In this document: one piece after another, positions 14,520 through 33,537 of the stretch
Position numbering within the stretch: the first letter of the stretch is position 1
Layout: every line of letters begins with the position of its first letter
Virus record (IMG/VR): IMGVR_UViG_2734482570_000003
DNA length: 33,537 nt
Direction: 5' to 3' (one strand)
From: a virus
Lineage: Duplodnaviria > Heunggongvirae > Uroviricota > Caudoviricetes
Made by a program: the position numbers and the translations under genes
The notes under the pieces: generated by a model
The model's database searches: none
What the model saw: the letters and a program-made list of their open reading frames with translations, nothing else
Told to the model about the DNA's origin: nothing

Positions 14520-14700
14520 AAAAAGCCCGTTTTCAGCATCTGTCGTTTCCTTTCTTTTCAGGGGGTGTTTTAAATAAAAACATGAAGTTACGGCGAAGAA
14601 GAACGGAAACGCCTTAAACCGGAAAATTTTCATAAATAGCGAAAACCCGCGCGCCTTCCGCCCCGTAACAGGCCGGATCGCCGGAAAGGACCCGCAAAGA
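14520..14700. other. cos region (cosB, cosN, cosQ) internal to the window; cosN about 14652-14663
   Basis: Reverse complement of 14581-14700 aligns with the remembered lambda cos flanks; the 12-nt cohesive-end position reads GGGCGGAAGGCG. Confidence 0.75.
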
Positions 14701-14915
14701 TGAGAATAATTATCACTTGCATTAATATCCGGCTTCTTCCACCCTCGCACAGGACTGGCGAGCATGAGGGACAAACCCGCGAATCATTAGCGCGGTAAAA
14801 ACCCGGTGTGCATCGTTTTTGATTATTTCCGCACACTCGCGCAGAGGAGTTCCCCGTCGGGCTACGGTCATGGTTAATGCGGAAATACGGCGACGATGCA
14901 GCGCGGTATTTAATG

Positions 14916-14931
14916 TGCGACCACGGTCGCA
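14916..14931. repeat. sopC-like centromere palindrome TGCGACC-AC-GGTCGCA (copy 1 of 4)
   Basis: Perfect 7-bp inverted arms around a 2-bp centre; one change per arm from the F-plasmid SopB site TGGGACC-AC-GGTCCCA. Confidence 0.6.
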
Positions 14932-14951
14932 AACGAGAAACAAAGAGATTT

Positions 14952-15263
14952 TTATGCTACAGAGGAACAAGCTGGCGGGTAATTCAGCGTAGTGAATACC
15001 GGCATCTCCATCTTGTATGCGTAATGATACTCAGCAGTTGCTCCAGCAGACGCTTTCCAGCCAGGAAGCATCAAAATAGCATCAGCACAACGAAGCATTG
15101 CAAAGCAAATATCCATGTATTCACGTTGTGTCAGACCATTAGGCAAAGTGGCTGGATTCAAGACAGAGTGACCATGTCGTGACAAACGATCTGCCTCTTT
15201 ATTAAAGGCGTCACGATTAAAGTTCTCATATCCCGTCATTGGCCCGGCAATATAAATTTTCAT
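14952..15263 (-). CDS. DUF4406-like protein (nucleoside 2-deoxyribosyltransferase-like fold)
   Basis: 103 aa with N-terminal MKIYIAGPMTG motif typical of that family; sits between lysis genes and cos. Confidence 0.5.
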   Translation of the reverse strand: MKIYIAGPMTGYENFNRDAFNKEADRLSRHGHSVLNPATLPNGLTQREYMDICFAMLRCADAILMLPGWKASAGATAEYHYAYKMEMPVFTTLNYPPACSSVA

Positions 15264-15304
15264 TCACTATCCAACAAATTGAGCTCGTTTTTGATACAGA
15301 GGTA

Positions 15305-15754
15305 TTAATTCAGGCATTGCGTCTTGATGTATTCCTGCAAGTAGTTAACCTGCGCAGTTATCCTGTCGATCCCACTTCGGAGACGGTAATAATTGAGTTC
15401 AGCATCTGCTGTAAGTCTTGGGCTTTCTCCATTGCCCATGCCGCTGGCTCCGGTCGTTGACTTTGCACAGGTGGCGGCGACTTGCAGGCGCTTACGCCCA
15501 GCAGAAACATCAGCACGGAGGCTTTCGATAGTCGCGTTAGCATCAGCAAGCTCCTTTGTATATCTGGCATCGAGTTCCGCTACGTCACGTTGACGCTTCT
15601 GCATATCAGCGATTGTGGATGTGGCTTTATCGCGCTGCTCTTTGTAGGCGATGGCGTTATCACGGTAATGATTAACAGCCCACGACAGGCAGACGATGAT
15701 GCAAATAACCAGAGCGGAGATAATCGCGGTTACCCTGCTCATTGTTGACCCCAC
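15305..15754 (-). CDS. Rz: Spanin inner-membrane subunit Rz (i-spanin)
   Basis: N-terminal TM helix [20 protein letters not shown] then coiled-coil; probable start at MSRV (about 15742); directly after the endolysin gene. Confidence 0.85.
15358..15540 (-). CDS. Rz1: Spanin outer-membrane lipoprotein Rz1 (o-spanin), embedded in Rz in another frame
   Basis: Embedded ORF with lipobox LLGVSAC followed by Pro-rich [13 protein letters not shown]; start codon uncertain. Confidence 0.6.
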
Positions 15755-16239
15755 AAACAGACTTCACGCTCAATCTCACGACGAGTCATCAGGCCTTTCC
15801 ATTGCTTACCGCCAGCAGATATCCAGCGACGTAGCTGATCACATGCGCCTTTGATATCGCCCTGGTTTATTTTGCGAAGAAGCGTCGATGTTCTGAAATT
15901 ACCAGCACCCACGTTGTAAACGAACGAGTAAAGAGCGCCGCGCGTTGTTTCCGGTATATCGACTTTGATGTACGGGTTAATTTGTCTGGCGACAGTGGCA
16001 AGGTCTTTATTCAGGAGAGCTTTGCATTCTGCTTCGGTATACGTTTTACCTAGCATGATGTCTTTTCCAGTGTGTCCATAACATACAGTCCATACGCCAA
16101 CAATATCTTTGTATGGTATGTAACTGACACCTTCCAGACCATCGTTACCACTTGGGCCAGTGATGAGCATAGACGCTATGGCAATAGCCCCGCCACCAAT
16201 AGCAGCTGTGACAGCTTTGCGTAATGATGACTGCATCAT
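15739..16239 (-). CDS. R: SAR endolysin (phage lysozyme, phage 21 R-type)
   Basis: 166 aa; N-terminal Gly/Ala-rich signal-anchor-release segment [21 protein letters not shown]; lysozyme-like core. Confidence 0.85.
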
Positions 16240-16508
16240 ATTTCCTTCGGTGCTCTCTTCCCCAGCTCTCCAATAACCATCGCTGTAGCAGAAAGATTAT
16301 TGGTATTAGTTTTATCCAATATGTCCTGCAATATCTTCGTGCGCTTCATCTGCTCGCGTTTATTGAGCCGGTATGTAAGCACACCGAGGATAATGCTGAA
16401 CGCGACACCGATAATGAAGCCCCAATCCTGCAATGACAGGCTGGCAAAGAACGCAGCAAGACCAGCGCTACCATAAGATGCACTGCTGTATCGTTCATCC
16501 ATCTTCAT
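16236..16508 (-). CDS. S: Putative holin (pinholin-like, two TM segments)
   Basis: 90 aa with two hydrophobic segments ([13 protein letters not shown] and [18 protein letters not shown]); overlaps the endolysin start; position. Confidence 0.6.
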
Positions 16509-16603
16509 ATCTCTTACCTCGCAATAGTTGCTGAGGTTTCGGCTTGGAAACTATATGGCGAAAATAACCCCTACCAAAAACGGCAGGGGAATATATTCTC
16601 CAG

Positions 16604-17725
16604 TTACTCAAATAACTTTTTCACTTCATCAACTGTCTGAAGATAACGTTCGCCCTCAATCTCAATACCTATTGCCTGACGTCCTAACTTCAGCGCAGCT
16701 TTAATAGTTGAGCCTGATCCCATAAAGAAATCGGCAACGATATCTCCGGGGCGTGAACTACTCTTTATAATATGTTCCATCATCGCTGCAGGTTTTTCAC
16801 ATGGGTGCTTGCCAGGATAATATTGCACAGGAGGAAACTCCCATACATCGGTATAAGGTACATCAGCAGTAACATGAAATGGACGGCGTAAATTTTCATA
16901 CTGAGCCTTCAAATCATCATACTGCTTCTTTACTTCCTCATAATGCAATTTCAGATCGCTATAACGCTTTTCATGTTCTGAATAATCAAAATTAAAAGGA
17001 TATGGACACGGGACACCGAGTGAATCTGCCTTCCTGCGAAATAATTCGCATAGTTTATTAAAATCAATTAATGATGGAAGCCGCCACTGCGAATAAGAAA
17101 ACCAGTGTGAACACATCTGCTTTCCTGTCGCTGAATTAATGTCTGCGGCTGATATATCTAACTGACGGCGAGCCAGCGAAAAAGCATCAATTAGTGGAGA
17201 AAAAATATTTTTTCTTAAATCTGCACATTTTGAAGCATAACCTGACTGACCTTTAGCATAACCTGACGCGCCGTAATGCTCTGCAAATAATATTCTTTCA
17301 GTAGCAGGAAAATAAGCCCTTAAACTTTCTTTATGACAACCGCGCCACATACCACTGGGTTTAGCCCAAATGATATGGTTCAGAACATTGAAACGGTCGC
17401 GAGTTAATAATTCAATTTTTGACGCAAGGCGAGAGCCGGTAAACATATACAGGCTGCCATTAGGGGCCAATATCCGCCAAAATTCTGCCAAAAATTCGTC
17501 AATCCACCCCAAAAAGTCAGCATCGCTATCCCACTGGTTATCCCATGCGTTAGCCTTTACGCCGAAGTATGGTGGGTCTGTTGCAATCAAATTGACCGAG
17601 TTATCAGGGATGGTTTTGATAAATTGCAGAGAATCTGCGCAAACGAGTTGTGCGCCATGAATATTAGTGGTTTTGAACATAGCTATTATTTTTTTGCCTG
17701 GGTAAGCTAACCCGGCGATGCGCAT
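16604..17725 (-). CDS. DNA methyltransferase, beta-class amino-MTase (N6-adenine or N4-cytosine), orphan
   Basis: DPPY motif IV near the N-terminus (LIATDPPYFG) and motif I near the C-terminus (DFFMGSGST); no adjacent restriction endonuclease candidate. Alternative start at 17680. Confidence 0.85.
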   Translation of the reverse strand: MRIAGLAYPGKKIIAMFKTTNIHGAQLVCADSLQFIKTIPDNSVNLIATDPPYFGVKANAWDNQWDSDADFLGWIDEFLAEFWRILAPNGSLYMFTGSRLASKIELLTRDRFNVLNHIIWAKPSGMWRGCHKESLRAYFPATERILFAEHYGASGYAKGQSGYASKCADLRKNIFSPLIDAFSLARRQLDISAADINSATGKQMCSHWFSYSQWRLPSLIDFNKLCELFRRKADSLGVPCPYPFNFDYSEHEKRYSDLKLHYEEVKKQYDDLKAQYENLRRPFHVTADVPYTDVWEFPPVQYYPGKHPCEKPAAMMEHIIKSSSRPGDIVADFFMGSGSTIKAALKLGRQAIGIEIEGERYLQTVDEVKKLFE

Positions 17726-17814
17726 CGCGGGTGGGCTTTAGGTTCAGCCTATAGCTCTGGCATGGGTTGACCGCAGGACAAGCTGCAACTTGTCCTGCGC
17801 CCACTTTTCAGGCA

Positions 17815-17837
17815 CAAAAAAACCGCCATAAAGGCGG
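17815..17837 (-). terminator. Rho-independent terminator upstream of the methyltransferase gene
   Basis: Minus strand CCGCC-TTTAT-GGCGG followed by T7-8 (plus-strand A-run 17815-17822). Confidence 0.6.
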
Positions 17838-17925
17838 CTTGTTGGCTGTTGGGTACAAAAAACCCAACTTAACAAAACAATAACTAAAAACCGTCATTTT
17901 GCCAAGCTTTTTCGTTTTTGTGCTG

Positions 17926-17941
17926 TGCGACCGTGGTCGCA
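17926..17941. repeat. sopC-like centromere palindrome TGCGACC-GT-GGTCGCA (copy 2; extends to 22-bp CTGTGCGACCGTGGTCGCACAG)
   Basis: Perfect palindrome; exact reverse-orientation match to copies 1 and 3. Confidence 0.6.
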
Positions 17942-17947
17942 CAGCTT

Positions 17948-18175
17948 TTAGAAAGTTGCCTGCTTATATTCATCGGTCAAAGAATATCGACCAGATCCGC
18001 TACGCTTTGCAACCCCAAAACAGATCATCTGTTCGATGATAAATTCAACGGCAGCTTGACTCAAAAAACAGGCTTCGCTTAACTCTTTCAGGGAAATGCG
18101 TGGGTATCCACGCATAACACATTCCACACTCAGGGCCGCTTCAGTCATATTTCCACGAATTTCATTAATATTCAT
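17948..18175 (-). CDS. Small winged-helix DNA-binding protein (hypothetical)
   Basis: 75 aa; helix-turn-wing pattern ...ISLKELSEACFLSQAAVEFIIEQMICFGVAKRSGSGRYSLT. Confidence 0.5.
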   Translation of the reverse strand: MNINEIRGNMTEAALSVECVMRGYPRISLKELSEACFLSQAAVEFIIEQMICFGVAKRSGSGRYSLTDEYKQATF

Positions 18176-18188
18176 AACGCCTCTCTAA

Positions 18189-18410
18189 TCAATCTTGAAA
18201 CTGGAAATCAACATCAGCCATAAAGCGGTTCAACTCAGCCAGTTTTGGCCCCATAGTCCCAACTAAGCGACCAGCCAGTCGGTCTGTTAGGTTGGTACTG
18301 TTGAAACCATATTCCTTTTCGAAACGTTCAACCTTCTGCCACAACTCATACAGTTCGTTAGCTATCTCCGCAACGTCGTCGCGCATTTTTTCGTTACCTT
18401 GATAATTCAT
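18189..18410 (-). CDS. Hypothetical acidic helical protein
   Basis: Track ORF 18189..18428; GGAGG sits inside the ORF before the second ATG, so the likely start is MNYQGNEK. Confidence 0.45.
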   Translation of the reverse strand: MNYQGNEKMRDDVAEIANELYELWQKVERFEKEYGFNSTNLTDRLAGRLVGTMGPKLAELNRFMADVDFQFQD

Positions 18411-18575
18411 AATATCCTCCAAATTCATATAGTTAGTGGGTTATTACCCCTCAATGACACGAACTGTAACTCTGCCAAACGAACACATCCAGTGTTATTT
18501 TTCGCTTTTTAGTGAAATTTTTGATTTGCGTTGTTTTCTTGTTTTGGTGTATTTTATGGATATGGAGGCTATAAT

Positions 18576-18887
18576 ATGTTTAACGTGATAACCCACCCTG
18601 CAGCACTGGATGAACTGCTTGAACTACCAGATGATTTGCGAGGTCGCATGACCAGATTAATTGAGCGACTGGAGAAAGAAGGCAACAAACTGAAGATGCC
18701 CCATAGCCGTGTAATAGGTGGAGGGCTTTTTGAACTACGAGTAGGGGATAAAAACATCGCAAGAACGCTGTACGCCTACGCGACTGGTAACGAAATTTAT
18801 CTATTGCATGCATTTGTAAAAAAGACACAGAAAACACCGGTGAAGGCTATCGAAATCGCCAGAACTCGCCTGAAGGAGATGAACTGA
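18576..18887 (+). CDS. Type II toxin, RelE/ParE superfamily (HigB / Gp49-like)
   Basis: Track ORF 18531..18887; GGAGG 8 nt before the ATG at 18576; Gp49/HigB-like sequence pattern; toxin precedes antitoxin. Confidence 0.7.
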   Translation: MFNVITHPAALDELLELPDDLRGRMTRLIERLEKEGNKLKMPHSRVIGGGLFELRVGDKNIARTLYAYATGNEIYLLHAFVKKTQKTPVKAIEIARTRLKEMN

Positions 18888-19174
18888 TGAAAGCGAAAGG
18901 CATCCCGTTTAACGAAGTAAAAGAAAAACTCCTCAACACTCCAGAAGCCGTCAAAGGATATGAAGAGGCCGACAAAGAGCTGGAGATGGTCGAAATGTTA
19001 TACGAAATGAGGGAAAGAGCAGGTTTAACGAAATCAGCTCTGGCTGAACGAATGGGGTTGCGACCGTCAGCCATCAGCCGCCTGGAAAGCAATCCTTTAG
19101 GGGCAAGTATGAAAACTTTGGCTAAATATGCTCATGCCTGCGGCGCAACCATCGATATTCGCGCTGTTTATTAA
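18887..19174 (+). CDS. HTH XRE-family antitoxin (HigA-like)
   Basis: 95 aa; HTH segment LTKSALAERMGLRPSAISRLE; start overlaps the toxin stop (TGATG). Confidence 0.7.
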   Translation: MKAKGIPFNEVKEKLLNTPEAVKGYEEADKELEMVEMLYEMRERAGLTKSALAERMGLRPSAISRLESNPLGASMKTLAKYAHACGATIDIRAVY

Positions 19175-19216
19175 TTAGACTCTTTTACTACCCCGTCCAG
19201 AAGGGCGGGGTGTGCA

Positions 19217-19420
19217 TCAATGATGTGAACGCTCAACAGCGATAGTTTGCTGACAATGCTGGGCAATCTCTCGCGACATGTTGATGAGTCGTGAAACCTC
19301 ACCAATATGTAGGCTGGCTTCTGGAGAAGCCAGGGTGACGCTAACCAGATCCAGAACGGCGTCAATATCTCTTAAATTTGAATCGAGTTGTTCAAGAGTT
19401 GATACGGCTGCTTCAGACAT
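19217..19420 (-). CDS. Hypothetical protein
   Basis: 67-aa ORF convergent with the toxin-antitoxin pair; no recognisable motif. Confidence 0.3.
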   Translation of the reverse strand: MSEAAVSTLEQLDSNLRDIDAVLDLVSVTLASPEASLHIGEVSRLINMSREIAQHCQQTIAVERSHH

Positions 19421-19502
19421 TAAATCTCATACCATTTAACTAAAAAAGGTTATTTATACTGTATAAAATTACAGGGTAAAACTCAAACTTTACGGTCAAT
19501 TT

Positions 19503-19745
19503 TCAATGAATTAACTGCGTAAACTGCTGTGTGACCCGATACTTATGCTCTCTCCCTATGCCACGATCAACTTTCTCAAGAAGTCCAGTACGGACAGCAG
19601 AATCAAGCATCCTTTTAACAATTCTGCTATTTAACCCAACATCAAAAGAAAGCATCGAAGCGAAAACAAAACCATCACCACCATCAGAAAAGCTCTTTTC
19701 GCTCCGTTTTCGTATCATTTCAAAAAGCAATGCCTTTTTATCCAT
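19503..19745 (-). CDS. Small winged-helix DNA-binding protein (hypothetical)
   Basis: 80 aa; GGAGG RBS; wing-like RGIGREHKYRVT. Confidence 0.5.
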   Translation of the reverse strand: MDKKALLFEMIRKRSEKSFSDGGDGFVFASMLSFDVGLNSRIVKRMLDSAVRTGLLEKVDRGIGREHKYRVTQQFTQLIH

Positions 19746-19752
19746 TTATCCC

Positions 19753-19766
19753 TCCGTGACCAGTCA
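19753..19766. repeat. Palindrome family B CGTGAC-CA-GTCACG (copy 1 of 3)
   Basis: Perfect 6-bp inverted arms with a 2-bp centre, immediately upstream of the RBS of the 19503..19745 gene. Confidence 0.5.
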
Positions 19767-20090
19767 CGCTTTGAGCGCAAGTTTCAGCCTCGTGGTTGTA
19801 AGGTGGCATGACCCTTCGCCATCAAAAATGCATTCTGAAACAGGCATTTTTTGACCACATCGCGGGCAAGTAGTAGATAGCTGCTTCTGCAGCTCCTTAT
19901 AGTTTTTCCTGATCAGCAAACCAATGACTTCGTTCTCCGAATATGGAACTCGCCCTGGTCTACGCAATACACAAATTTCCCCCAACATACGTAACTCGTC
20001 AGGTTCTAGAATCCAGTCCCGTCTTGATGTGCCTTCCTTCTTCAACCGTTCCCTGCGTCTCCTTTGCCGTTCTGCCGGTGTCAGCGCCAT
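19764..20090 (-). CDS. Hypothetical protein with Arg-rich N-terminus and Cys cluster (zinc-ribbon-like)
   Basis: 108 aa; CPRCGQKMPVSECIFDGEGSCH. Confidence 0.45.
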   Translation of the reverse strand: MALTPAERQRRRRERLKKEGTSRRDWILEPDELRMLGEICVLRRPGRVPYSENEVIGLLIRKNYKELQKQLSTTCPRCGQKMPVSECIFDGEGSCHLTTTRLKLALKA

Positions 20091-20105
20091 AAATCCTCCT
20101 GAAAA

Positions 20106-20636
20106 TTACTTAACCCAATTAACTACACCGCCAGCGGCCACAACCGCCCTTTCACAGTCACGCTCATATCTCAAAGGTTGAAATACACCATCAATAAAAT
20201 ATTTATCTCCACCAAACGCTGCAGGAAGTGAAACAGAAAACTGAATATGACCATCCGGAGTTACCGGAGAGTTGCCAGCCAGTCTACGCAACACAGCCTT
20301 AACGGCCTCAATACGGTCATCATCAACTTTTTCTACAATATTGGAATTTAAATACTTCGAAGCCTTGCTATGCCAATCGCTGGTTTTAGGGTCTTGTCCA
20401 TCCATCAAACGCCAAGCTTCAGCGATTAACTCATAGCCAGTGACAGTGGCTTCCTGCGCATCACCAATAAGTCGTGTAATCTCTCTTTCAAGCCGACCGC
20501 CTAGCTCTGTTTTAGTGCAATGTTCTGACCAATCGCCAGCCTCAAGCAGCGCGAGAATGCTTAAAATATCGTCCAATAGAACGGTAGTATTATCGACTTC
20601 CTTCTGAAACTCACCGGCTACTGATTTATGCATCAT
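20106..20636 (-). CDS. Hypothetical protein sharing an AGNxPVTPDG segment with the 20847..21596 protein
   Basis: 176 aa; no other recognisable motif. Confidence 0.5.
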   Translation of the reverse strand: MMHKSVAGEFQKEVDNTTVLLDDILSILALLEAGDWSEHCTKTELGGRLEREITRLIGDAQEATVTGYELIAEAWRLMDGQDPKTSDWHSKASKYLNSNIVEKVDDDRIEAVKAVLRRLAGNSPVTPDGHIQFSVSLPAAFGGDKYFIDGVFQPLRYERDCERAVVAAGGVVNWVK

Positions 20637-20935
20637 TCGTCATCCTCATCTGAGTCATCCTCATCACAGGATGAGAGTAGTGGGTTAGTCATTCGCCCTA
20701 CTTGAGTGGCGTAGCCACGCCGACAGAGATTGCGCAGCACACTGTATATTTCGAACATCTCGGTTCGTTCATCACCAACATCAAGCTCAGATGCTATAGC
20801 GTGGCATTCAGTCGCGAGAGCCGATATTTTCTGAAATAACTCTGCTTTATTCACTCTTCGACTCCTGCGGCGGTTCTGGTAGTGGCATCCAGTGAGTTGC
20901 TTGCTCAATACCATTACCCGGCTTAATCGTTGCAT
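20633..20935 (-). CDS. Hypothetical protein with acidic C-terminal tail
   Basis: 100 aa ending CDEDDSDEDDE; start uncertain. Confidence 0.35.
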   Translation of the reverse strand: MQRLSRVMVLSKQLTGCHYQNRRRSRRVNKAELFQKISALATECHAIASELDVGDERTEMFEIYSVLRNLCRRGYATQVGRMTNPLLSSCDEDDSDEDDE

Positions 20936-21596
20936 CTCCGCGCCGAAAGGTGCTTCCGGTATAGCGTGCGGAGCATATTAGCGGTTCAACCAGAGAGCTA
21001 TCGAAATTCACCGAAATAAGCACGTTCTGGCCCTTTTCAGGCATTCGCTCACTACAGCTTATCCAACCATCCGGAGTTACCGGATAGTTGCCAGCCTCAT
21101 ACGCGACCCTTATCCAGTGCATAAGCATTTCAGTACTTACACATCCACAATCAACATCAATTTTGTCATGCTGCTGTTCCAGCCATTGCTCAAAAGTTAA
21201 CTTGTAAGTTTGGCTTACAGGTTTGGCTTCCAGTTCTGCTATGTGATTTTTGGCTGATTCCAACTCAATCGACAATTTTTCCAACTGCTCTTTATGATTT
21301 TTATATTCCTGATATGCGTGCCAAGACTGACCTTTGCGCACACTATCAGTGATATCAGTAATCTGTTCTGGTGTTAGCGTGGTCAGTGGCTGTGATGGGA
21401 AAATAAGCACTTTCCCGGAATCCCAATCAAAACCAGCGTGAATTGACTGAACCTCAACTGAAGGTGTTGAACCAATGCTGCCAGGCGAATGAACAACGAT
21501 TGTTACATCCATATCGCGACGATGGCTGTGGTTGTTGGACAAAATACGATTCAACAAAATACGATTCACCAACTCAGAAAATTTAGAAAATTTCAT
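20847..21596 (-). CDS. Hypothetical phage protein with DUF551-like C-terminal domain
   Basis: 249 aa; coiled-coil middle; C-terminal ...ATHWMPLPEPP resembles DUF551 as remembered. Confidence 0.5.
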   Translation of the reverse strand: MKFSKFSELVNRILLNRILSNNHSHRRDMDVTIVVHSPGSIGSTPSVEVQSIHAGFDWDSGKVLIFPSQPLTTLTPEQITDITDSVRKGQSWHAYQEYKNHKEQLEKLSIELESAKNHIAELEAKPVSQTYKLTFEQWLEQQHDKIDVDCGCVSTEMLMHWIRVAYEAGNYPVTPDGWISCSERMPEKGQNVLISVNFDSSLVEPLICSARYTGSTFRRGDATIKPGNGIEQATHWMPLPEPPQESKSE

Positions 21597-21961
21597 GCTG
21601 ATTCACCTTTCTCTGCTCTCTCCTGTCGGAACATCACTATCATCAGGTCGCCTTTTGTCGCTATCTTGGCTGTTGTGCCTGGCTCAATGCGGCTAAGTTC
21701 AAATGCGTCATAGAACGCCTCCAACGCTTTCTGGCGTTTTTCCTGTTTGCGGCGCTTTCCCCACTGCTTTAGAAAAACAGAGGCCGCCCACTTCCCCGCA
21801 CTGAACATGATGTAAAACCAACCGAGAAGTGCCAGACCGGTATTTAGGGCCGTATCGATCGTTATCGTGGTGTCGATATTCACTACGCCACCTCCTGAAA
21901 ATTTCCCTGATAAAACGCCAACACACGCTGCATAACTTCGCTCTTCCGACAATCGTGACAA
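21593..21961 (-). CDS. Hypothetical protein, possible single TM segment
   Basis: 122-aa ORF overlapping both neighbours; hydrophobic LALLGWFYIMFSAGKWAASVF; true start unclear. Confidence 0.3.
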   Translation of the reverse strand: MSRLSEERSYAACVGVLSGKFSGGGVVNIDTTITIDTALNTGLALLGWFYIMFSAGKWAASVFLKQWGKRRKQEKRQKALEAFYDAFELSRIEPGTTAKIATKGDLMIVMFRQERAEKGESA

Positions 21962-22302
21962 ATCATGTTCAAGCGCCTGTCGTAACGACGTATTTCTCCG
22001 TCAGGTAATGACCAGATAAGGTCTGGATCAACCACTACCGATTTCTTCGGCTTTACTCTTGATAGTTTTTTACGGGCGTTTTGCCAGTCCTTGCGTGCTT
22101 GTGCAGACAGAAATATCCCGGAGCCAGAGATATACAAATCACCGCTGGCAGCAAGCTCTCTTGATAAACGACTAACAGCACACCGGCTAATACCAGTTTC
22201 ATCCGCAAGTTGCCTAACCGTTCCTCGTCCATTCAGGCGCACGAGTTCCACAATTTGTTTATTCAGTTCTTCCCTCTGTTCTGGTGTAAAAGCCTTTGCC
22301 AT
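21883..22302 (-). CDS. Putative winged-helix DNA-binding protein
   Basis: 139 aa; HTH-like RQLADETGISRCAVSRLSREL; C-terminal CHDC. Confidence 0.45.
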   Translation of the reverse strand: MAKAFTPEQREELNKQIVELVRLNGRGTVRQLADETGISRCAVSRLSRELAASGDLYISGSGIFLSAQARKDWQNARKKLSRVKPKKSVVVDPDLIWSLPDGEIRRYDRRLNMICHDCRKSEVMQRVLAFYQGNFQEVA

Positions 22303-22901
22303 TACGATTCTCCTTGCCCTTTTACAAGACGGGAGAAAATTGCGGATACATATTTAGCCTGATGAATAGCATCAGCCAGGGCATTGTGTCGTTCGCCATC
22401 AAATGGCATATCTTTTTTAGGATTAAAACCAATAAACTGACCAAGATTAACGATTGTTCGAACATCCTGATCATTAAAATATTCCCACGGACAGGCTAAG
22501 CCAACGCGCTCATAAGCACCGCGTAAAATTACATTATCGAACGTTGCTCCATTTCCCCATACTTTCAATTTTTTTAAATTACATGCATGGCAAGTAATAA
22601 AGTGTGATAATTCAAAAAGTGCATCCTTAATATCAAGGGCATCATTAGTACAAATAGCGGCTCTGGCTTACTTGCTCTGTTTCAACCACCATAAAATGGT
22701 ATCACCATCGGCGATACCACCATTCAACATCGAGCTTCTGAGATTCACTGGCACATAAAAAGTAGGACCTAATTCCTCACTTTCTGGAGAAAAAAACACT
22801 GCCCCGATAGAAACAATTGGAGCACATGTGTTAGTACCCATTGTTTCAAGGTCAATCATTACATCAGACCGTTTCCTGTCGTAAATAATCTGATTAGTCA
22901 C
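22302..22901 (-). pseudogene. DEDDh-type 3-prime-5-prime exonuclease interrupted by a single in-frame TAA
   Basis: ORFs 22668..22901 and 22302..22568 are in the same frame; the 33 codons between them are open; Exo I-like motif (MIDLETMGT) is in the first part and Exo III-like motif (HNALADAIHQAKY) in the second. Confidence 0.6.
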
Positions 22902-22924
22902 GAATAATTCTCCTCAACGTTTAT

Positions 22925-23152
22925 CTATACCCAAATTTTCTGTTGATATGTTCTGGATGGTTTTGGCGTTCTTTCTGATTCAGGTAAATGAACATAAACG
23001 CAATATCCATCACCTAAAAAATCAGAACGAACAACCAGAACTTTCTTACCACGCCGCCGATAAGTATCTGAAAGACGCTCTGCTTCATCATGCGTCATCG
23101 GCCCCTGCTTAAATGGCGTTATTTTCATTTTCTTGTGCGACCACGGTCGCAC
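22925..23152 (-). CDS. Hypothetical small protein
   Basis: 75-aa ORF; start uncertain. Confidence 0.3.
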   Translation of the reverse strand: MRPWSHKKMKITPFKQGPMTHDEAERLSDTYRRRGKKVLVVRSDFLGDGYCVYVHLPESERTPKPSRTYQQKIWV

Positions 23153-23429
23153 CCTCTCTGATTTCCAAGTAACGCTTAATCCAAAGATTTTCTATATGCT
23201 TATTACCTGGCTGATTTGATAAATACCAATCGGCAATTACAGACTGCTTATTACTATCTGGTCGTGTCCTGTAACCACAAGTTGGACACCAGATAACATA
23301 TTCATTTCTTACCCCCGAATACCTTAATTCTGGCTTCGACGGTTTCCTGAACATAACTTGTTTACAAAGACAGAATGGCACTTCCTGCCCGATGGCGTTT
23401 GATGATTTCACTGCGCTTCTCCGCCGCAT
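23109..23429 (-). CDS. Hypothetical protein with CxC...CxxC motif
   Basis: 106 aa; FCLCKQ ... WCPTCGY. Confidence 0.4.
   Translation of the reverse strand: MRRRSAVKSSNAIGQEVPFCLCKQVMFRKPSKPELRYSGVRNEYVIWCPTCGYRTRPDSNKQSVIADWYLSNQPGNKHIENLWIKRYLEIREGATVVAQENENNAI
23136..23151. repeat. sopC-like centromere palindrome TGCGACC-AC-GGTCGCA (copy 3)
   Basis: Identical 16-mer to copy 1; lies in the 3-prime end of the 23109..23429 ORF. Confidence 0.6.
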
Positions 23430-24072
23430 TTAATAATGCAGTTCGATTTAAGCTCAGACATCGCGACTTAATTAAAAGCCAGCGTTCTTTATAATCTTGT
23501 CTCCAGCTATCAATAGATATATTCAGTAGAAAACTCAGATGCCTGTCCTGTTCTCTCTCATCAACTGCCTCAGCACACGTAAGTTCTGATTTAACCTGTT
23601 GTGCCGCGTAATAAATCAATTTCCGCATGGCTTTTTTCGTGGAGGCCTTCATTTTTTTAAAGCCGCCCCCCGAATGAGCAACCAGAAAATCAAGCCATAA
23701 CCACTGACAAACAATCACATCATTGTTGTAATCAGGCTTGCATCCGTAGCAATAATAAAGCCAGGCTGATTCCTCGTTATTCAACTGACCAATAGCCCTG
23801 CGCCAGCTGGCGCTCTGAAAATCAATATCAGTGAGCAACATTGATGATTGTTTAAATGTTTTCCCCTGGTGGAATCTAACCGGCTCAGCAGGAACGGACA
23901 CTTCGTATGAGTTATCATCCCCCACACTGATTGACCGGACTGGTTTATTGTTAAACCGTCCTGATCTACCGAGACGCATCTGCTCAAGCTGGACCTCCAG
24001 AATGCCACGCTGGCGATAATGAACATCAGCCAATGCCGTAGAGACGCAGCTGCGTATATACTCAAGCTCCAC
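23362..24072 (-). CDS. Possible late-gene antiterminator Q-like protein (assignment by position only)
   Basis: 236-aa ORF immediately downstream of cro, where N15-type immunity regions carry Q; no motif verified. Confidence 0.35.
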   Translation of the reverse strand: MELEYIRSCVSTALADVHYRQRGILEVQLEQMRLGRSGRFNNKPVRSISVGDDNSYEVSVPAEPVRFHQGKTFKQSSMLLTDIDFQSASWRRAIGQLNNEESAWLYYCYGCKPDYNNDVIVCQWLWLDFLVAHSGGGFKKMKASTKKAMRKLIYYAAQQVKSELTCAEAVDEREQDRHLSFLLNISIDSWRQDYKERWLLIKSRCLSLNRTALLNAAEKRSEIIKRHRAGSAILSL

Positions 24073-24283
24073 GCTTACGACTCTCCTTAATCGACTGCTT
24101 TACCCGCCGAGTTGTAAAGTCACTCTTCAGCTTATAAGCAGTACGAACTTCAATATCGCTTTGCCGCAATGAAGGAATCTCTCCAGCGGTTAACCATTGG
24201 TAAACAGCTCCGGGTGTTACACCTACCCCTGCCGCTGCTTTTTCTACACTGCCAAAATGGCGAATAAGTTCTTCTGGTTTCAT
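24062..24283 (-). CDS. cro: Cro-like HTH regulator
   Basis: Track ORF 24062..24310; probable start MKPEEL; HTH AAAGVGVTPGAVYQWL; divergent from the repressor gene. Confidence 0.7.
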   Translation of the reverse strand: MKPEELIRHFGSVEKAAAGVGVTPGAVYQWLTAGEIPSLRQSDIEVRTAYKLKSDFTTRRVKQSIKESRKRGA

Positions 24284-24310
24284 GTTGTTATTATAAACAA
24301 TAAACAACAA

Positions 24311-24352
24311 TTAAAGCCAGCTATAATAAATAAATTTTATAGCCAGCTATAA
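24311..24352. promoter_or_regulatory. Two operator-like 16-bp palindromes in the cro / cB divergent control region
   Basis: TTATAGC-CA-GCTATAA (perfect) at 24337-24352 and TTAAAGC-CA-GCTATAA (one mismatch) at 24311-24326, centres 26 bp apart; AT-rich -10-like hexamers overlap. Confidence 0.65.
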
Positions 24353-24374
24353 GAAGATCATTTATGATTACAGT

Positions 24375-24971
24375 ATGAAAACACGAGGCGAACGACTGAA
24401 AGCACGCCGTTTAGAGATGAAGCTGACGTTGCGAGAAGTTGCTGAGGCTGTCGATATCTCTATAGCAGGCGTCCAAAACTTAGAACGTGGCGACGTAATG
24501 CCGTCACTGGAGATAGGTATTGCCCTGGCTAAGTGCTTACGCAAGCCAGTGCATTGGGTGCTATATGGGACAGAATATGACCCTGATCGCATTCCTGTTA
24601 TTGGCACAACTGAAAGTGGGCCGGATGAAGAGTGGAAGCCGGGACAGGTTCCAAATACTGAGCGATTCCTGCCATTCATCAGCCAGCGCAATACTGTGTA
24701 TGCGTTAACTATCAGCAATCTTACGCAGGGAAACTATCAGCCAGGCGATTTTCTCCTGGTCGATTCTGCGCTGGAACTGGTCCCCGGCGAGGATGTTCTG
24801 GTTCGTGATACTGCAGGAAATATCACTATCCAGCGCCTGGCCCGTTTTGATGATGAAAATTACTATCTGGATGGAACAAACTCACAACGCGCCATCTTCA
24901 GGAAAAGCGATCTTGAATTTGTTCACCAAATAGTCGGAACGATCAAATCATTCATGGTTGAGGGTAGATGA
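24375..24971 (+). CDS. cB: Prophage repressor (CI/CB-like; N-terminal HTH, C-terminal LexA/S24-like domain)
   Basis: 198 aa; HTH LTLREVAEAVDISIAGVQNLERG; C-terminal GDFLLVDSALELVPGEDVLV resembles an S24 fold; divergent from cro with operators between. Confidence 0.8.
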   Translation: MKTRGERLKARRLEMKLTLREVAEAVDISIAGVQNLERGDVMPSLEIGIALAKCLRKPVHWVLYGTEYDPDRIPVIGTTESGPDEEWKPGQVPNTERFLPFISQRNTVYALTISNLTQGNYQPGDFLLVDSALELVPGEDVLVRDTAGNITIQRLARFDDENYYLDGTNSQRAIFRKSDLEFVHQIVGTIKSFMVEGR

Positions 24972-25073
24972 CTTAATACGGGGTTTATTGTTTGCTGTAA
25001 ATCTGGTTTAATGCAGGGCATATGTTCTGTGGGTTGACTCAGGTTACAGCAGCAGAAAAAAGACGAAAAAAAA

Positions 25074-25100
25074 CCCGAGTCGGCAAACTCGGGTCCTTTT
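25074..25100 (+). terminator. Rho-independent terminator after the repressor gene
   Basis: CCCGAGT-CGGCAA-ACTCGGG followed by TCCTTTT; preceded by an A-run. Confidence 0.65.
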
Positions 25101-25216
25101 CAGGAAGCAGCCACAGTAACGCGACGGATTCCGTCAATTCAAGATGCGTTTATTGTGGCTGCTCCTGCGGATTTTTTCAACCCGAAAAAACATAATTCGC
25201 ATGGAATGGCTAAAAA

Positions 25217-28200
25217 ATGACATTAAACGATTTCTATGCGGATCGCTTTGGCAGCGATCCGTTCTCGCTAATTGAAGCAGCACGGGATGAACTAACCGAG
25301 CTGGCACAGATGGCTGGTATCAACTGGCCTGCCTGTTCCGACAACATCCAACTCAACCCTCGCGGGGGGGTTGAGCGTTACTCTTCATACAATAAAACAT
25401 CTCCAGAAGCTCTCGAAAAGAGCCTGAAAGGACGCGTAGAAATTTACTCCAGGCTGGAACACAGCAAAGGGATTGATTACCCGTTCATTAACTTCGTCCA
25501 TAAAGGCAGCGATGCTGGCTCATGGAGCGGTTTCTCCTTCCTGTTTTCTGAATATCGCCGTGAGCAACAACGGAATAATGCGACCGTGGTCGCACAACCG
25601 GAAGAAGAACGGGAAAGAATAGAACGTCAGGCCGAAGCACGTCGTCGCCGTGAAGAACAAAAACGAATTAATGACCTGAAAAACAACCAAATGGACCATG
25701 AACGTTTGCTGGGATGGCTGGCATTCCACAGCGCGTGGGAACATGCTCCGGCTGAAGACGGCTCATGGCCATATGCGATTAAAAAAGGTATTCGTGACGT
25801 TTTTAGTTCATGTGATGTGCGTCGCGTGACCAGTCACGACAGTGCGAAATGGAGCCGGGGGCCAACCACATATATGGCTATCCCTCTGGCTCACCTGGAC
25901 AGTCGTTATGATGGTCGTATTGTGGGTTGGCAGCGAATCGACAAACAAGGTGGGAAATACCAGACCAGCGCAGTAACCAGCGGCGATTTCGTCGGTGCCT
26001 GCTTTGTTATCGGTGAGCTGAAAGGGGCGCAAAACATCGCTGTTACAGAAGGTTTTGCTACTGGTGCATCCATCTGGCTTGCCACGAAAAAAGATAAACG
26101 CTTTGACGCTGTGGTTGTCGCTGTATCCGCTAACAACATGGTTCATGTTGTGGAACAACTGGTAAACATGTACCCGGCGGCAAAAATCACCTGCGCACTG
26201 GATAATGACCGGAAATCTGCCACAGAAGGAAAAGGGAATACCGGCCTGCGGACTGGCTATGAAATCTTATCGAAATTCAACGATGTCCGCTGCGTCTATC
26301 CAACTTTTGAAGACGATCCGCAAATGGAGTGCAGTGACTTCAACGACCTGCACAAACTACGTGGACTTCGTGAAACAGCACGTCAACTATTTGCAACAGC
26401 AAACCGCCTGAAAACCGGTACTGATTTGCTATCTCTGACGCTCAACCGCCTGAAGACAATTAAGCGGGATAACCGTCGTACTTTTGCCAAAGAGCTGCTG
26501 AGAGCGGTGGATATTGGCATGCTAACCTGTCCGGTTCCTAACAGTCCGTCAGATTTATTTAACATGTTCTGCATCGTTCTGCGTGAAATGGGACTGGAAA
26601 ATATCTATCGTGCTACGGTAAAAGACCACATTGCCCGTCGCCTGAATAAAAAGTGCCGTATTGCCCAGGCTCCGCGCTCTTTCAGCGAACGCATAACTGA
26701 TCCCAATAAACGACCTCAACATATCACCTATAAGCGTTTTGAAACTTCGGTAATGACCGATGATGTCCTGAAGTACGTGCAATCACTACAGGGGATAGTC
26801 ATCGTCCGTGCTGGTATGGGTTCCGGCAAATCTACTGGATTGTTACGACCGTTAATGCATAGCTCAGAACGTGGTATCTCTGTTGCTCACCGTGTCTCCC
26901 TTATTGGTGGCCTGTGGGAAATGATGACAGAAGGAAAAGGTGTAAAAGCCGATATCCTGCACTATCAGGATCCTGGCTATCAGGAAATGGCTCCATACGC
27001 CAGTAAACTGACCATCTGCATAAACTCGATTGTTAAAAACTGCTGGCAACCGTTGATGCGCCAGCACGACTATTTTGGCTTTGACGAGGCCACACAAGGG
27101 CTACGTGCCGTTCTTTCCGGTCGGGCTATGGAAAACCCGGTGGCTGTATTCAATACGCTAATTGACGCGCTGGCCAGAACGGAACAACACCCAATCATGG
27201 TGGATGCTGATGCGAACGATCTGCTGGTTGACCTGGCTGAACTAGCTATGAAACGCCGTGAAGAACTAGGTTTACCGGCATGGCTGCAGATCCACGTAAT
27301 TGAATTACCTGTTGATGTTCGCAACCGCGAAACAGGTGAGCCAATCCGGGTTTTTTATACAGAAAAAGATCGCATCATGACCGAGGTGGTGAAAGCTGTA
27401 TCGGATGGCGAAAAAATCATGTTGGCCACCGACAGCTCCACCTTTGCAGAAGATGTGACAGCCACCCTGAGAATGCATTTTCCTGGTAAGAAATTTCTGT
27501 GTGTAAACCAGAAAAACAAACCAGAGCCAGAAGTTGAAGCATTTACCAATCAACCGAAAAAGATGGTCAAAAAATACGACGGCCTGATTTATAGCCCGTC
27601 TATTTCATCCGGCGTGTCGATTGAGCAAAAACATTTTGACCGTCATTTCGGCATGTTCTGTGGTGAAGTTGTACCCAGCGACGCAGTGCAAATGCTACGC
27701 CGCGACCGTACAGCAAAAGAATTTATTATCGGCTTTGATAAAGCTCGTGCAAAACGTGAAACTGACCCGCAAAAAATAGAACGAGCATTCGCCCAGGCAT
27801 TGCTTGCTACTGCAGGTATGAACGGTGAACTGACGGATGTCGTTTTCGATGGCGACCGTATATCAATGGGGGTGGCCAATACCGACTTTACCAGGATGAA
27901 AATTAAAGCAGCCGCAATTGAAGCGTCTGCACGTAACGACTACGCCAGCAACATGATCTGCATCATGCACAGCGACGGTTATAAGATATCGCCGCTGGCC
28001 ACCGATTATGCTGCAAATGATATCGGTAAAGATCTGCGTAAAGAAGCGCGGGATATTGTGTGGGAACAGACACTGGATCTGCATCTCAATACAGAAACTC
28101 CACAAGAATCAGAGCGTGAAGAACTGCTAAAAAAACGCGCGCTAACGCTTGAAGAACAGGCAAAACTTGTCCGCTGGGATATTGAGAACGAACTGAAACT

Positions 28201-29212
28201 ACCGGTTGAAGAAGGCACGCTGAAATTCTATTTCGATGGTGCTCGAGACAAAGTTCGCCGCTATGAAACAATGCTTTTAGATGAGGTAACAGCTCGTCGT
28301 TACGACCGGGAAGAAGCAGCCATCAATTTTACCTACGCATACCGTCAGGCGGGACAGTGGCAATATTTTGTAGTGACCGCAATGACTCGCGAGCAGGCTG
28401 ATGATGTCTTTAAAACTAAATTCCCTGGAATAATCGACTACAAGGTAAAAGCTACTCCTACTGTTGAAGTCGGGGCGCGCGGTTTCTATGCGCTTAAATC
28501 AGCAACTCTCCGGCAGTACTTTATCGACTGCGGTATCAACCCTGAGACTATGACCGGCGAGGCGACTCAGGAGCGTCTCAAATTTGCTCGAGATAACCTC
28601 ATGACAGCCGAACGCCGTGACCTGTTGAATAACGTTCTGCACATTGGTGGTTTTATGACGCCAAAAGGGAAGCCTAAAGTGCCGGAAGCGTTGTTTAAAA
28701 ACATTTGCGACTCTCTTGGCCTTAAAACAGGTAAACGTCGCGGCAGAGACGGCGATAAGCGTCCAACCTTGCGTTTTGTTGAGCCTGAATCAGCGGCATT
28801 TATGCTGGATATTCTTGCTCAGCGTCAGAAAGATGGCCTAACCCTGAAAACGCGTAAAGCCGAGAAGACCGCCATCGAAATGGATCGCGATTTGGATCTC
28901 AATATATATATGGATGATAAAACGCGATCCACAAACGAGCAGGTTCAAAACGCCCCTCATTCAGTAATTTCTGAGGCTTTGGCCGTGTTGCCAGTGGCTG
29001 TACCTGAGTCCTGGGCGATGAGTGCGCTTTCCAGTGAGGAGTTGGCCACCATGTCATCATGGTCATCAGCCAGCATAGCTATGACGTTTGCATCCCTGTA
29101 CCTCACAGAGTTCATGGATCACCTTTCCAGCAATGAGCTGCGGCGGTTACGTGAATACATTACGGGGAATAGCTCATGCAGCTACGAAGAGCAGGGCGCT
29201 TTCTATGGGTAA
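25217..29212 (+). CDS. repA: Replication protein RepA (N-terminal TOPRIM primase domain plus P-loop helicase domain)
   Basis: 1331 aa; TOPRIM-like motifs (AVTEGFATGAS, ALDNDRKS); Walker A AGMGSGKST and Walker B-like FGFDEA; adjacent to cB as in N15-type phages. Confidence 0.85.
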   Translation: MTLNDFYADRFGSDPFSLIEAARDELTELAQMAGINWPACSDNIQLNPRGGVERYSSYNKTSPEALEKSLKGRVEIYSRLEHSKGIDYPFINFVHKGSDAGSWSGFSFLFSEYRREQQRNNATVVAQPEEERERIERQAEARRRREEQKRINDLKNNQMDHERLLGWLAFHSAWEHAPAEDGSWPYAIKKGIRDVFSSCDVRRVTSHDSAKWSRGPTTYMAIPLAHLDSRYDGRIVGWQRIDKQGGKYQTSAVTSGDFVGACFVIGELKGAQNIAVTEGFATGASIWLATKKDKRFDAVVVAVSANNMVHVVEQLVNMYPAAKITCALDNDRKSATEGKGNTGLRTGYEILSKFNDVRCVYPTFEDDPQMECSDFNDLHKLRGLRETARQLFATANRLKTGTDLLSLTLNRLKTIKRDNRRTFAKELLRAVDIGMLTCPVPNSPSDLFNMFCIVLREMGLENIYRATVKDHIARRLNKKCRIAQAPRSFSERITDPNKRPQHITYKRFETSVMTDDVLKYVQSLQGIVIVRAGMGSGKSTGLLRPLMHSSERGISVAHRVSLIGGLWEMMTEGKGVKADILHYQDPGYQEMAPYASKLTICINSIVKNCWQPLMRQHDYFGFDEATQGLRAVLSGRAMENPVAVFNTLIDALARTEQHPIMVDADANDLLVDLAELAMKRREELGLPAWLQIHVIELPVDVRNRETGEPIRVFYTEKDRIMTEVVKAVSDGEKIMLATDSSTFAEDVTATLRMHFPGKKFLCVNQKNKPEPEVEAFTNQPKKMVKKYDGLIYSPSISSGVSIEQKHFDRHFGMFCGEVVPSDAVQMLRRDRTAKEFIIGFDKARAKRETDPQKIERAFAQALLATAGMNGELTDVVFDGDRISMGVANTDFTRMKIKAAAIEASARNDYASNMICIMHSDGYKISPLATDYAANDIGKDLRKEARDIVWEQTLDLHLNTETPQESEREELLKKRALTLEEQAKLVRWDIENELKLPVEEGTLKFYFDGARDKVRRYETMLLDEVTARRYDREEAAINFTYAYRQAGQWQYFVVTAMTREQADDVFKTKFPGIIDYKVKATPTVEVGARGFYALKSATLRQYFIDCGINPETMTGEATQERLKFARDNLMTAERRDLLNNVLHIGGFMTPKGKPKVPEALFKNICDSLGLKTGKRRGRDGDKRPTLRFVEPESAAFMLDILAQRQKDGLTLKTRKAEKTAIEMDRDLDLNIYMDDKTRSTNEQVQNAPHSVISEALAVLPVAVPESWAMSALSSEELATMSSWSSASIAMTFASLYLTEFMDHLSSNELRRLREYITGNSSCSYEEQGAFYG
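25579..25594. repeat. sopC-like centromere palindrome TGCGACC-GT-GGTCGCA (copy 4, inside repA, encodes ATVVA)
   Basis: Perfect palindrome within the repA coding sequence. Confidence 0.6.
25825..25838. repeat. Palindrome family B CGTGAC-CA-GTCACG (copy 2, inside repA)
   Basis: Exact 14-mer match to the 19753 copy. Confidence 0.5.
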
Positions 29213-31417: not shown

Positions 31418-33325
31418 TTATCCGAAATATGTCAGCCATGCTAACTGCATTGCTGATATAGGGCTGTTTGCACTGCCGGACCAAGCATAATTCTGGCCAT
31501 TATAATGAAACTCAACAACGTATGAGCCATCACCAATATTTCTCACAGGCTTAAATACCGGCTTAGATACAGGTGAAGAAGGCGCGGGCGGTTGCTGTTC
31601 TTCTACGCTCTCTTCCTCTTCCTCTTCCTCTTCCTCTTCCTCTATCTCAATTTCGTCGTCATCCAGATCGTCATCCTCTGATAATTCATCCGTCTGTTCA
31701 GGTATTGCTTCCAGCTCTTCTTCGTCAGGCATAACGATTTCTGGAGAATCTATTTTCAGCTGCCATTGTCCATTTTCGCCAACAAATTGCCCCAGAGCAT
31801 CAGCAGCAAACTCCAGGTATCGACTAATCATTGTAGGGCTAAATTTGAATGCTCTTAGAGTGCTGTTCGTGATTTTTATAGAGGGGTCCTGCTCTACCAG
31901 CTGCTTAACTGTGTTATGCAGACGAACTCCGGCATCTCCTCTGGCGAATCCTGGCATTTCGTCATCAAGCTGCTGCAATGCTTCCAGCCTGGTATTTTCG
32001 TTTCCAGTATTTGGCCTCCATGTCTTTGAGAAGTTGGCCAGCTTGAATTGCTTATAGTGTAATTGAGTGTTTTCATCGTCATGGCCTAAAATTTCCATAA
32101 AGAAAACATCCTCATCTACGTTTTTCCAACGAGGATCTACGCGGAAAAACATTTCATACGCAATACGGGCATAAATAGCACGACTATCTTTATAAACACG
32201 GCGGTCATCTTTGAAAAATGATTTAACCCACGGGTTAAAAGCCTTTGCTAATATGGCATTAATCCGTCCGTTTTCAGAGCGTGTGTCGTTATCTCCATAA
32301 CCTTTAACGACATCATCAAAATCAGATGCTGCTGGGCATGAGCGAAGTACATTTATTAAATAAACAAATGTTTTTGCTTCGCATAATGTATATATTTTTC
32401 TGGTTATATCATCAGAAGTTCTTTTTTTTGCTTGGCCTAAAAAATCAACGGTATACTTACCAGAAACAGTAAATGTACCTTGATACATAATCTCAATCAT
32501 TCGTCTTCCTGACAATGCAGCAAGTGCAAATGCCAAAGGAGCCATACCTGAACGAGTGTTTAGATTATTTAATGTAGCAGGGCTATTTATAATATCGTAA
32601 ATAGCTTGCATATATTTAGGGTAATCAATGACCACCACGTTACGTTTCTTATTGTGCAGAACGTCTGCCCATCGTTGCTGGATAGATGCGCGTTCGGCAG
32701 GGCTTAGTTGAAGATGATAGAGAATCTCATGGTTAACTTTTAGCTGATTCAACTCCTCAAGTAAGGCAGATCCTTGCTGTAGTAATTTATATAAATAATC
32801 GCGCTTATCTTTCCAGTTATCGCTAGTTAAATCAGAAATGGCGAATTGCCACTCTTTATATTTATTTGATAATTTTAATAACTTATTATGACTTTTGTTA
32901 TCACCAATTCTGATATTAGATAAATCTTCTGATAAAGGGAGAATTAATTTTAATTTTGCCTGTAAAGCTGACATTCTCTGGCGAATATCGGCAGCAGGTA
33001 GAGAAAGCCATGATAATAGCTCCTCATTATATAAAGGATACTTTTCAGATAGGCGATGTATATTTTTTTCAAAGCTATGATGAAGTTTATCATCAAACCG
33101 TTTTCTGGCCCTGCTCATATAGGCATTGAATGTGTTGGCTGTAATTCTTTTTTCTAATCCTTTCCCCCTAAACTTTCGCTTGTCATTAAATAATGCATTT
33201 TTAAATTTTAATGCAACAGCTTTTATTTTTTTTGTTTTTTCCCCTTGAGGACGGTCAGAGTTATCTATTGACTCAACATCGCTAACAAGTGAGTTTATTA
33301 ATTCACCGATTTTTACTTTGCTCAT
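31418..33325 (-). CDS. telN: Protelomerase (telomere resolvase) TelN
   Basis: 635 aa, close to the 631 aa of N15 TelN; long acidic linker; adjacent to the telomere palindrome. Confidence 0.85.
   Translation of the reverse strand: MSKVKIGELINSLVSDVESIDNSDRPQGEKTKKIKAVALKFKNALFNDKRKFRGKGLEKRITANTFNAYMSRARKRFDDKLHHSFEKNIHRLSEKYPLYNEELLSWLSLPAADIRQRMSALQAKLKLILPLSEDLSNIRIGDNKSHNKLLKLSNKYKEWQFAISDLTSDNWKDKRDYLYKLLQQGSALLEELNQLKVNHEILYHLQLSPAERASIQQRWADVLHNKKRNVVVIDYPKYMQAIYDIINSPATLNNLNTRSGMAPLAFALAALSGRRMIEIMYQGTFTVSGKYTVDFLGQAKKRTSDDITRKIYTLCEAKTFVYLINVLRSCPAASDFDDVVKGYGDNDTRSENGRINAILAKAFNPWVKSFFKDDRRVYKDSRAIYARIAYEMFFRVDPRWKNVDEDVFFMEILGHDDENTQLHYKQFKLANFSKTWRPNTGNENTRLEALQQLDDEMPGFARGDAGVRLHNTVKQLVEQDPSIKITNSTLRAFKFSPTMISRYLEFAADALGQFVGENGQWQLKIDSPEIVMPDEEELEAIPEQTDELSEDDDLDDDEIEIEEEEEEEEEEESVEEQQPPAPSSPVSKPVFKPVRNIGDGSYVVEFHYNGQNYAWSGSANSPISAMQLAWLTYFG
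31609..31640 (-). repeat. Hexanucleotide (CTCTTC)n coding repeat giving a poly-Glu tract in TelN
   Basis: Plus strand ctcttcctcttcctcttcctcttcc; encodes EEEEEEEEEEEE. Confidence 0.8.
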
Positions 33326-33495: not shown

Positions 33496-33537
33496 ACATA
33501 ATTCCCCATTATACGCGCGTATAATGGGGAATTATGT
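33496..33537. other. Telomere resolution site (telRL/telO-type palindrome), truncated by the window end
   Basis: Perfect 42-bp palindrome ACATAATTCCCCATTATACGCG|CGCGTATAATGGGGAATTATGT, dyad centre between 33516 and 33517, running to the last base of the window. Confidence 0.8.

Follow-up and report, generated by a model that had tools for sequence, protein, structure and literature searches.

The 33,537-nucleotide virus record IMGVR_UViG_2734482570_000003, analyzed over its whole length and referred to here as the window, carries four copies of a 16-bp inverted repeat. We identify these repeats, with a probability of about 0.9, as dispersed centromere sites of the phage N15 type, which on sequence grounds are predicted to bind the partition protein SopB and to be orthologous to the N15 inverted repeats (IRs) IR1 to IR4. 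The window belongs to the N15-like linear phage-plasmids of E. coli. A first-pass annotation of the same DNA had described the motif as sopC-like. The motif does resemble the SopB site of the F plasmid, but it is actually the site of N15 and of Klebsiella phage phiKO2 itself, so its detection is a rediscovery. The dispersed-centromere arrangement is already known from both phages, and its novelty is nil to minimal.

Sequence of the repeats and correspondence to the N15 sites

A motif search of the entire window with TGCGACCNNGGTCGCA returned four matches with 0 mismatches each, at 14916 (central dinucleotide AC), 17926 (GT), 23136 (AC), and 25579 (GT), the same four exact copies that the first-pass annotation had listed. 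No further match was found in the window at up to 2 mismatches, and a search at 3 mismatches added just two, which is the level expected by chance and yields no degenerate sites. Dinucleotide-preserving shuffles contained a mean of 0.14 matches and none of 100 shuffles had four, which upholds the earlier claim that such a recurrence cannot be chance. Each 16-mer is a perfect 7 + 7 inverted repeat with a 2-bp spacer. Its description as a perfect palindrome is accurate for the arms but not for the whole site, because an AC or GT spacer is not self-complementary. AC and GT are reverse complements of each other, and the four copies are therefore one sequence in two orientations, two copies in each. 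The sites are spaced 2.4 to 5.2 kb apart as single dispersed copies and form no tandem array.

The IR1 to IR4 oligonucleotide sequences (Table 4 of PMC7205306, where the centromere work cited is Ravin and Lane 1999, J Bacteriol 181:6898) were located in the N15 genome at 33480, 35931, 41125, and 45562. The first of these positions falls in repA, the second downstream of Q, the third 21 bp upstream of the −35 element that is annotated for the late promoter (41162), and the fourth near cosR. Alignment and synteny pair the window sites with IR1 to IR4 one to one. The phiKO2 record has four features labeled "putative plasmid partitioning site" at the same four places as the window sites, and its equivalent of IR3 adjoins the "putative late promoter" of that record. 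The same set of sites is found in an Enterobacter relative. This shared synteny, together with arms identical to those of IR1 to IR4, supports the proposal that the repeats are N15-like dispersed Sop centromeres lying near replication and late-gene control regions. An array built from the IR1 to IR4 sequences supports focus formation by N15 SopB, which accepts both these sites and sopC, whereas F SopB is functional with sopC only (PMC7205306).

Conservation and gene contexts of the sites

Conservation was analyzed in 46 IMG/VR loci with a RepA 74 to 100% identical to the window RepA. A copy of the motif at repA +362/365 and another ~2.08 kb upstream of repA are present in 46 of 46 loci, and nearly all of them have at least one further copy 5.5 to 10 kb upstream of repA. 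Throughout this set no arm is more than 1 mismatch from the core, and the central dinucleotide is variable (GT, AC, GC, AT, or GA). The number of sites in close relatives is 4, 5, or 6. Covariation between the arms and the SopB recognition helix is uninformative within the N15 group, where both the residues and the arms are almost invariant.

The 5′ regions of 27 distinct repA sequences were aligned by codon. The third positions of codons 121 to 125 are invariant in the 27 sequences, and the same holds for just 3 of 49 codons in the flanks (Fisher p = 1.8e-5). Five different amino acids are specified by codon 121 in these sequences, and the T that starts the site is always kept. The third positions are thus frozen within the repA site even where the amino acid changes, which indicates selection on the DNA and not on the protein alone. 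Selection at the DNA level is also evident at the IR4-type site, where the 16-mer is the only sequence common to the window and N15 and is kept within non-homologous flanks. The repA copy is a clear case of a predicted protein-binding site that constrains synonymous positions of a gene.

Site pairs separated by 47, 155, or 220 bp occur in some N15-group relatives, which have 5 to 6 sites in total. Among the sampled loci, the pairs are at about −5956/−5909 relative to repA in L016, L028, L030 to L032, L034, L038, and L050, at −9358/−9203 in L016 and L030, and at −9720/−9500 in L040. With a spacing similar to the 43-bp period in F sopC, the 47-bp pairs could represent an intermediate between dispersed and tandem centromeres.

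The positions and neighbors of the four sites are collected in Table 1. Two placements made in the first-pass annotation are confirmed: one copy lies inside repA, and another lies in the 3′ end of the open reading frame (ORF) next to Q. This ORF overlaps the 3′ end of Q, contains CxC and CPTC motifs, and has a sub-threshold match to Lar_restr_allev (E = 3.6e-4). Its frame is open in 31 distinct relatives, where it is also conserved. The C-terminal G-A-T-x-V-A of this ORF is specified by the IR2-type site, and some Klebsiella relatives have the stop codon directly after the site. Neither the N15 and phiKO2 RefSeq records nor Prokaryotic Genome Annotation Pipeline (PGAP) annotations call the Lar-like ORF, which appears as "orf QD1" in an old N15 record. 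The two sites located in coding sequence (25579 and 23136) share a reading frame, xxT GCG ACC NNG GTC GCA, which translates as A-T-x-V-A. The shared frame may be a coincidence, with odds of ~1 in 3 by chance.

Around the IR3-type site the perfect palindrome is longer, with arms of 11 bp (GCTGTGCGACC GT GGTCGCACAGC; 17920-17947), and arm extension at the remaining three sites is at most 1 bp. Directly downstream is a late promoter-like site that aligns with the annotated N15 −35 and −10 elements. By its sequence, this promoter and the hairpin that follows it are a predicted Q-dependent late transcription unit of the N15/lambda type. The position of the IR4-type site is equivalent to 45562 in N15 and to 48618-48635 in phiKO2.

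Table 1. Candidate SopB sites and other features of the window (positions on the 33,537-nucleotide stretch)
Feature	Position	Strand	Context and remarks
Candidate IR4-type SopB site	14916..14931		20 nt downstream of the DUF4406 gene; ~255 bp from cos
DUF4406 gene, last before the IR4-type site	14952..15263	-	Stop codon 14952-14954; PF14359, E = 3.7e-34
Candidate IR3-type SopB site	17926..17941		4 nt past the gp51-like stop codon; 20 bp upstream of the late-promoter −35; syntenic with N15 41125
Late promoter-like site and terminator-like hairpin	17820..17905	-	TTGGCA-17-TATTGT (17905-17877), then hairpin (17840-17820)
Candidate IR2-type SopB site	23136..23151		211 bp downstream of the Q stop; syntenic with N15 35931 and phiKO2 40345-40362
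Conserved zinc-ribbon ORF, 106 aa	23109..23429	-	IR2-type site in its 3′ end; sub-threshold Lar_restr_allev match
Q-like antiterminator gene	23362..24072	-	
Candidate IR1-type SopB site, TGCGACCGTGGTCGCA	25579..25594		repA codons 121-126; syntenic with N15 33480 (repA offset +362/365)
repA, 1331 aa, primase/replication protein	25217..29212	+	CyRepA1 family; carries the IR1-type site
Single copy of the ~187-bp repeat	14734..14904		Apparent junction of a 1.78-kb deletion
Protelomerase gene	31418..33325	-	
Telomere-resolution palindrome	33496..33537		Centre between 33516 and 33517; sop operon beyond the palindrome in relatives

Partition proteins and alternative roles of the sites

No SopA or SopB homologue is encoded in the window as judged by tblastn (best E = 0.68), and the operon was located in close relatives. 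The window is 99.7 to 99.99% identical to the linear plasmid pCAVP367-48 (NZ_CP145143), 98.0 to 99.9% identical to NZ_JAUDQL020000005, and ~97 to 99% identical to phage PhiR46_1. The sopAB genes are at 45086-47217 in pCAVP367-48, beside the right telomere, and at 37124-39255 in the circular assembly NZ_JAUDQL020000005, where sopA begins ~440 bp past the window end point. There is no copy of the site near sopAB in the complete relatives. The earlier expectation that sopAB lies outside the window agrees with its absence by tblastn and with its place beside the other telomere in near-identical complete plasmids. The suggestion that it would be found beyond position 1 fits the linear prophage map of these plasmids, which has the operon at the far end.

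The plasmid SopA and SopB proteins are 93% and 73% identical to N15 SopA and SopB, respectively. The DNA-binding region of SopB matches the solved structures of F SopB and the SopB-DNA complex (3MKY and related entries; E = 2e-38). The specificity determinants of F SopB are R190, K191, R195, and R219 (PMC3597684). The equivalent residues are R, N, R, and R in this SopB and in every N15-group SopB recovered.

The proposed mechanism follows that of type Ia partition systems. SopB, a type Ia ParB, would contact each 16-bp site as a dimer, using its helix-turn-helix and a second arginine, and would then load and spread into the adjacent DNA, building partition complexes. Positioning of these complexes by the Walker ATPase SopA would let both daughter cells inherit the low-copy prophage, and the sopAB operon would act in trans from the opposite telomere end of the linear molecule. 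Three points weigh against the identification of the repeats as centromere sites. The sopAB genes of the window's own replicon are placed by way of near-identical plasmids, and SopB binding, spreading, and plasmid stabilization are carried over to this element from work on N15 and F. The third is that arm position 3, at which the window and F sites differ, was unimportant for F SopB in a surface plasmon resonance imaging (SPRi) assay (PMC3177203, Pillet et al.). Since this position carries little weight for F SopB, the single base difference alone does not explain the discrimination between N15 and F sites.

The sites could bind SopB and yet be selected mainly for regulation of repA, the Q region, and the late promoter, with partition carried out through one site or another locus. 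This possibility is unlikely. Three of the four sites are indeed at control points, namely repA codons 121 to 126, the Q-adjacent ORF, and a position 20 bp upstream of the late promoter. An influence of Sop on late gene expression in N15 was reportedly described by Ravin, Rech and Lane in 2008, in a paper cited by title in PMC11652158. However, no centromere other than the IR sites is described in N15, and the IR array supports N15 SopB foci (PMC7205306). The fourth site adjoins no recognizable control element, and a regulatory role is in any case compatible with partition.

The two functions may therefore coexist on centromere sites. With three of the four sites located within or next to repA, Q, and the late promoter, it is probable that bound SopB affects expression of repA and the late genes as well. 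An extension of this idea, which we offer tentatively, is that the partition complexes double as a regulatory layer in which SopB spreading tunes replication and late transcription and couples segregation to the choice between lysogeny and lysis. If this were so, variation in site number (4, 5, or 6), site pairs 47 to 220 bp apart, and a 1.78-kb deletion described below would adjust the coupling. The late-gene part of this idea has already been proposed for N15.

It is highly improbable that the repeats serve another phage or host protein, such as a repressor-like regulator or a recombinase, and resemble sopC incidentally. Palindromic 16-mers are typical of operators, and the assignment of SopB to the sites of this element comes from sequence. 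Set against this are arms identical to those of sites that are functional with N15 SopB (PMC7205306), N15 CB repressor operators that have different sequences at other positions, and the family-wide occurrence of the motif in elements whose checked members all have the N15-type SopB recognition residues.

A function as RNA or DNA hairpins, terminators, or processing signals is scarcely credible, although some features of the sites invite it. An N15 stem_loop at 45560-45584, labeled a putative rho-independent terminator, overlaps IR4. The 17926 site is predicted to form a hairpin of 10 base pairs (−12.5 kcal/mol, z = −6.1), and both the 17926 and 14916 sites come after stop codons. None of the four sites, however, is terminator-like in a scan, there is no T-run on the transcribed strand, and the hairpins at two sites are no more stable than those of shuffled sequence (z = −1.5 and −2.4); rho-independent terminators were rejected for these reasons. 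One site is at codon 121 of an essential gene of 1331 codons. Moreover, it is the specific bases that are conserved and not their pairing, and the arms never covary. Chance recurrence, or the remnant of a repeated mobile sequence, is dismissed by the shuffles, by the mutually unrelated flanks of the four copies, and by retention of the sites across the whole family.

Ends of the window and comparison with known systems

The window combines lambda-like head and tail genes with a plasmid and immunity half that contains repA, cB/cro/Q, a RelE-type toxin-antitoxin pair, a methylase, lysis genes, and the protelomerase gene. Its first base is within a tail-tip gene and its last is 21 nt beyond the midpoint of the telomere palindrome (ACATAATTCCCCATTATACGCG|CGTATAATGGGGAATTATGT). 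These 21 nt fit either read-through of a hairpin end of the linear prophage or an unresolved telRL of the phage form.

The sequence beside the Nu1-like gene resembles the lambda cos region. The cos site was placed at ~14650-14663 by eye, from neighboring sequence that resembles the lambda and N15 cos regions, and the lambda and N15 cohesive-end sequences themselves have no match in the window. The cohesive-end region at 14640-14665 reads ...GTTACGGGGCGGAAGGCGCGCGCGGGTTTTCGC on the reverse strand, unlike lambda GGGCGGCGACCT and N15 GGGCGGCGTCCG.

A direct repeat of ~187 bp that is present once in the window occurs twice in the closest relatives (pCAVP367-48, NZ_JAUDQL020000005, and PhiR46_1), where the copies are 1784 to 1785 bp apart and 86 to 95% identical; in locus L004 they are at 18562-18748 and 20346-20533. 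Missing from the window is the intervening 1.78-kb segment, with two hypothetical genes and, 220 bp away from the fourth site, a fifth site of the centromere type. The loss has the look of a deletion mediated by the repeats, or else of an assembly collapse.

These results place the window as an N15-group linear phage-plasmid whose partition operon probably lies at the other telomere. Within this group, the predicted dispersed-centromere layout has been kept with essentially no change in members from E. coli, Klebsiella, and Enterobacter. The work reveals no new principle, and its practical value is in annotation: the sites and the Lar-like ORF are unannotated in the RefSeq and GenBank records examined for this lineage.

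The window sites and F sopC have in common a 16-bp site with 7-bp arms and a purine-pyrimidine centre. The SopB of the near-identical plasmids, which is predicted to bind the window sites, is homologous to that of F, and their partition system, like that of F, is of type Ia with a SopA Walker ATPase. The sopC repeats of F are directly downstream of sopB. An F-type array was rejected for the window, where the copies are single and kilobases apart and sopAB is >25 kb away along the linear map in relatives. F has 10 SopB-binding sites in tandem (PMC7205306) in 43-bp repeats (PMC3177203). The difference of one position per arm from the F site that was noted in the first-pass annotation is verified against the F consensus 5′-TGGGACCACGGTCCCA-3′ (PMC3177203) and is at position 3, which is G in the F arm TGGGACC and C in the window. 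F-type arms (TGGGACC/GGTCCCA) are absent from the window, and a search with TG[CG]GACC..GGTC[CG]CA gave the C/G form of N15 only. The G-to-C change in the arm is accompanied by a change from K191 in F SopB to N in the N15 group, and this residue is not claimed to explain specificity.

The correspondence to N15 is closer. The 7-bp arms TGCGACC/GGTCGCA are identical, and the sites are single copies that lie kilobases from one another and from sopAB. They occupy the 5′ part of repA, a position downstream of Q, another upstream of the late promoter, and a fourth near cosR. The SopA and SopB type of N15 matches that of the near-identical complete plasmids. N15 differs in an arm mismatch in the GenBank IR1 sequence, whereas all window arms are perfect, and in centres that are AC, TC, AT, and AC, whereas all in the window are AC/GT (purine-pyrimidine). 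The window element also has lambda-like and not N15 structural genes, and the SopB of the near-identical plasmids shares the 73% identity with N15 SopB given above. Compared to phiKO2, the host and the flanking gene content are different, and the core (G)TGCGACCGTGGTCGCA(C) and the four positions of the sites are identical.

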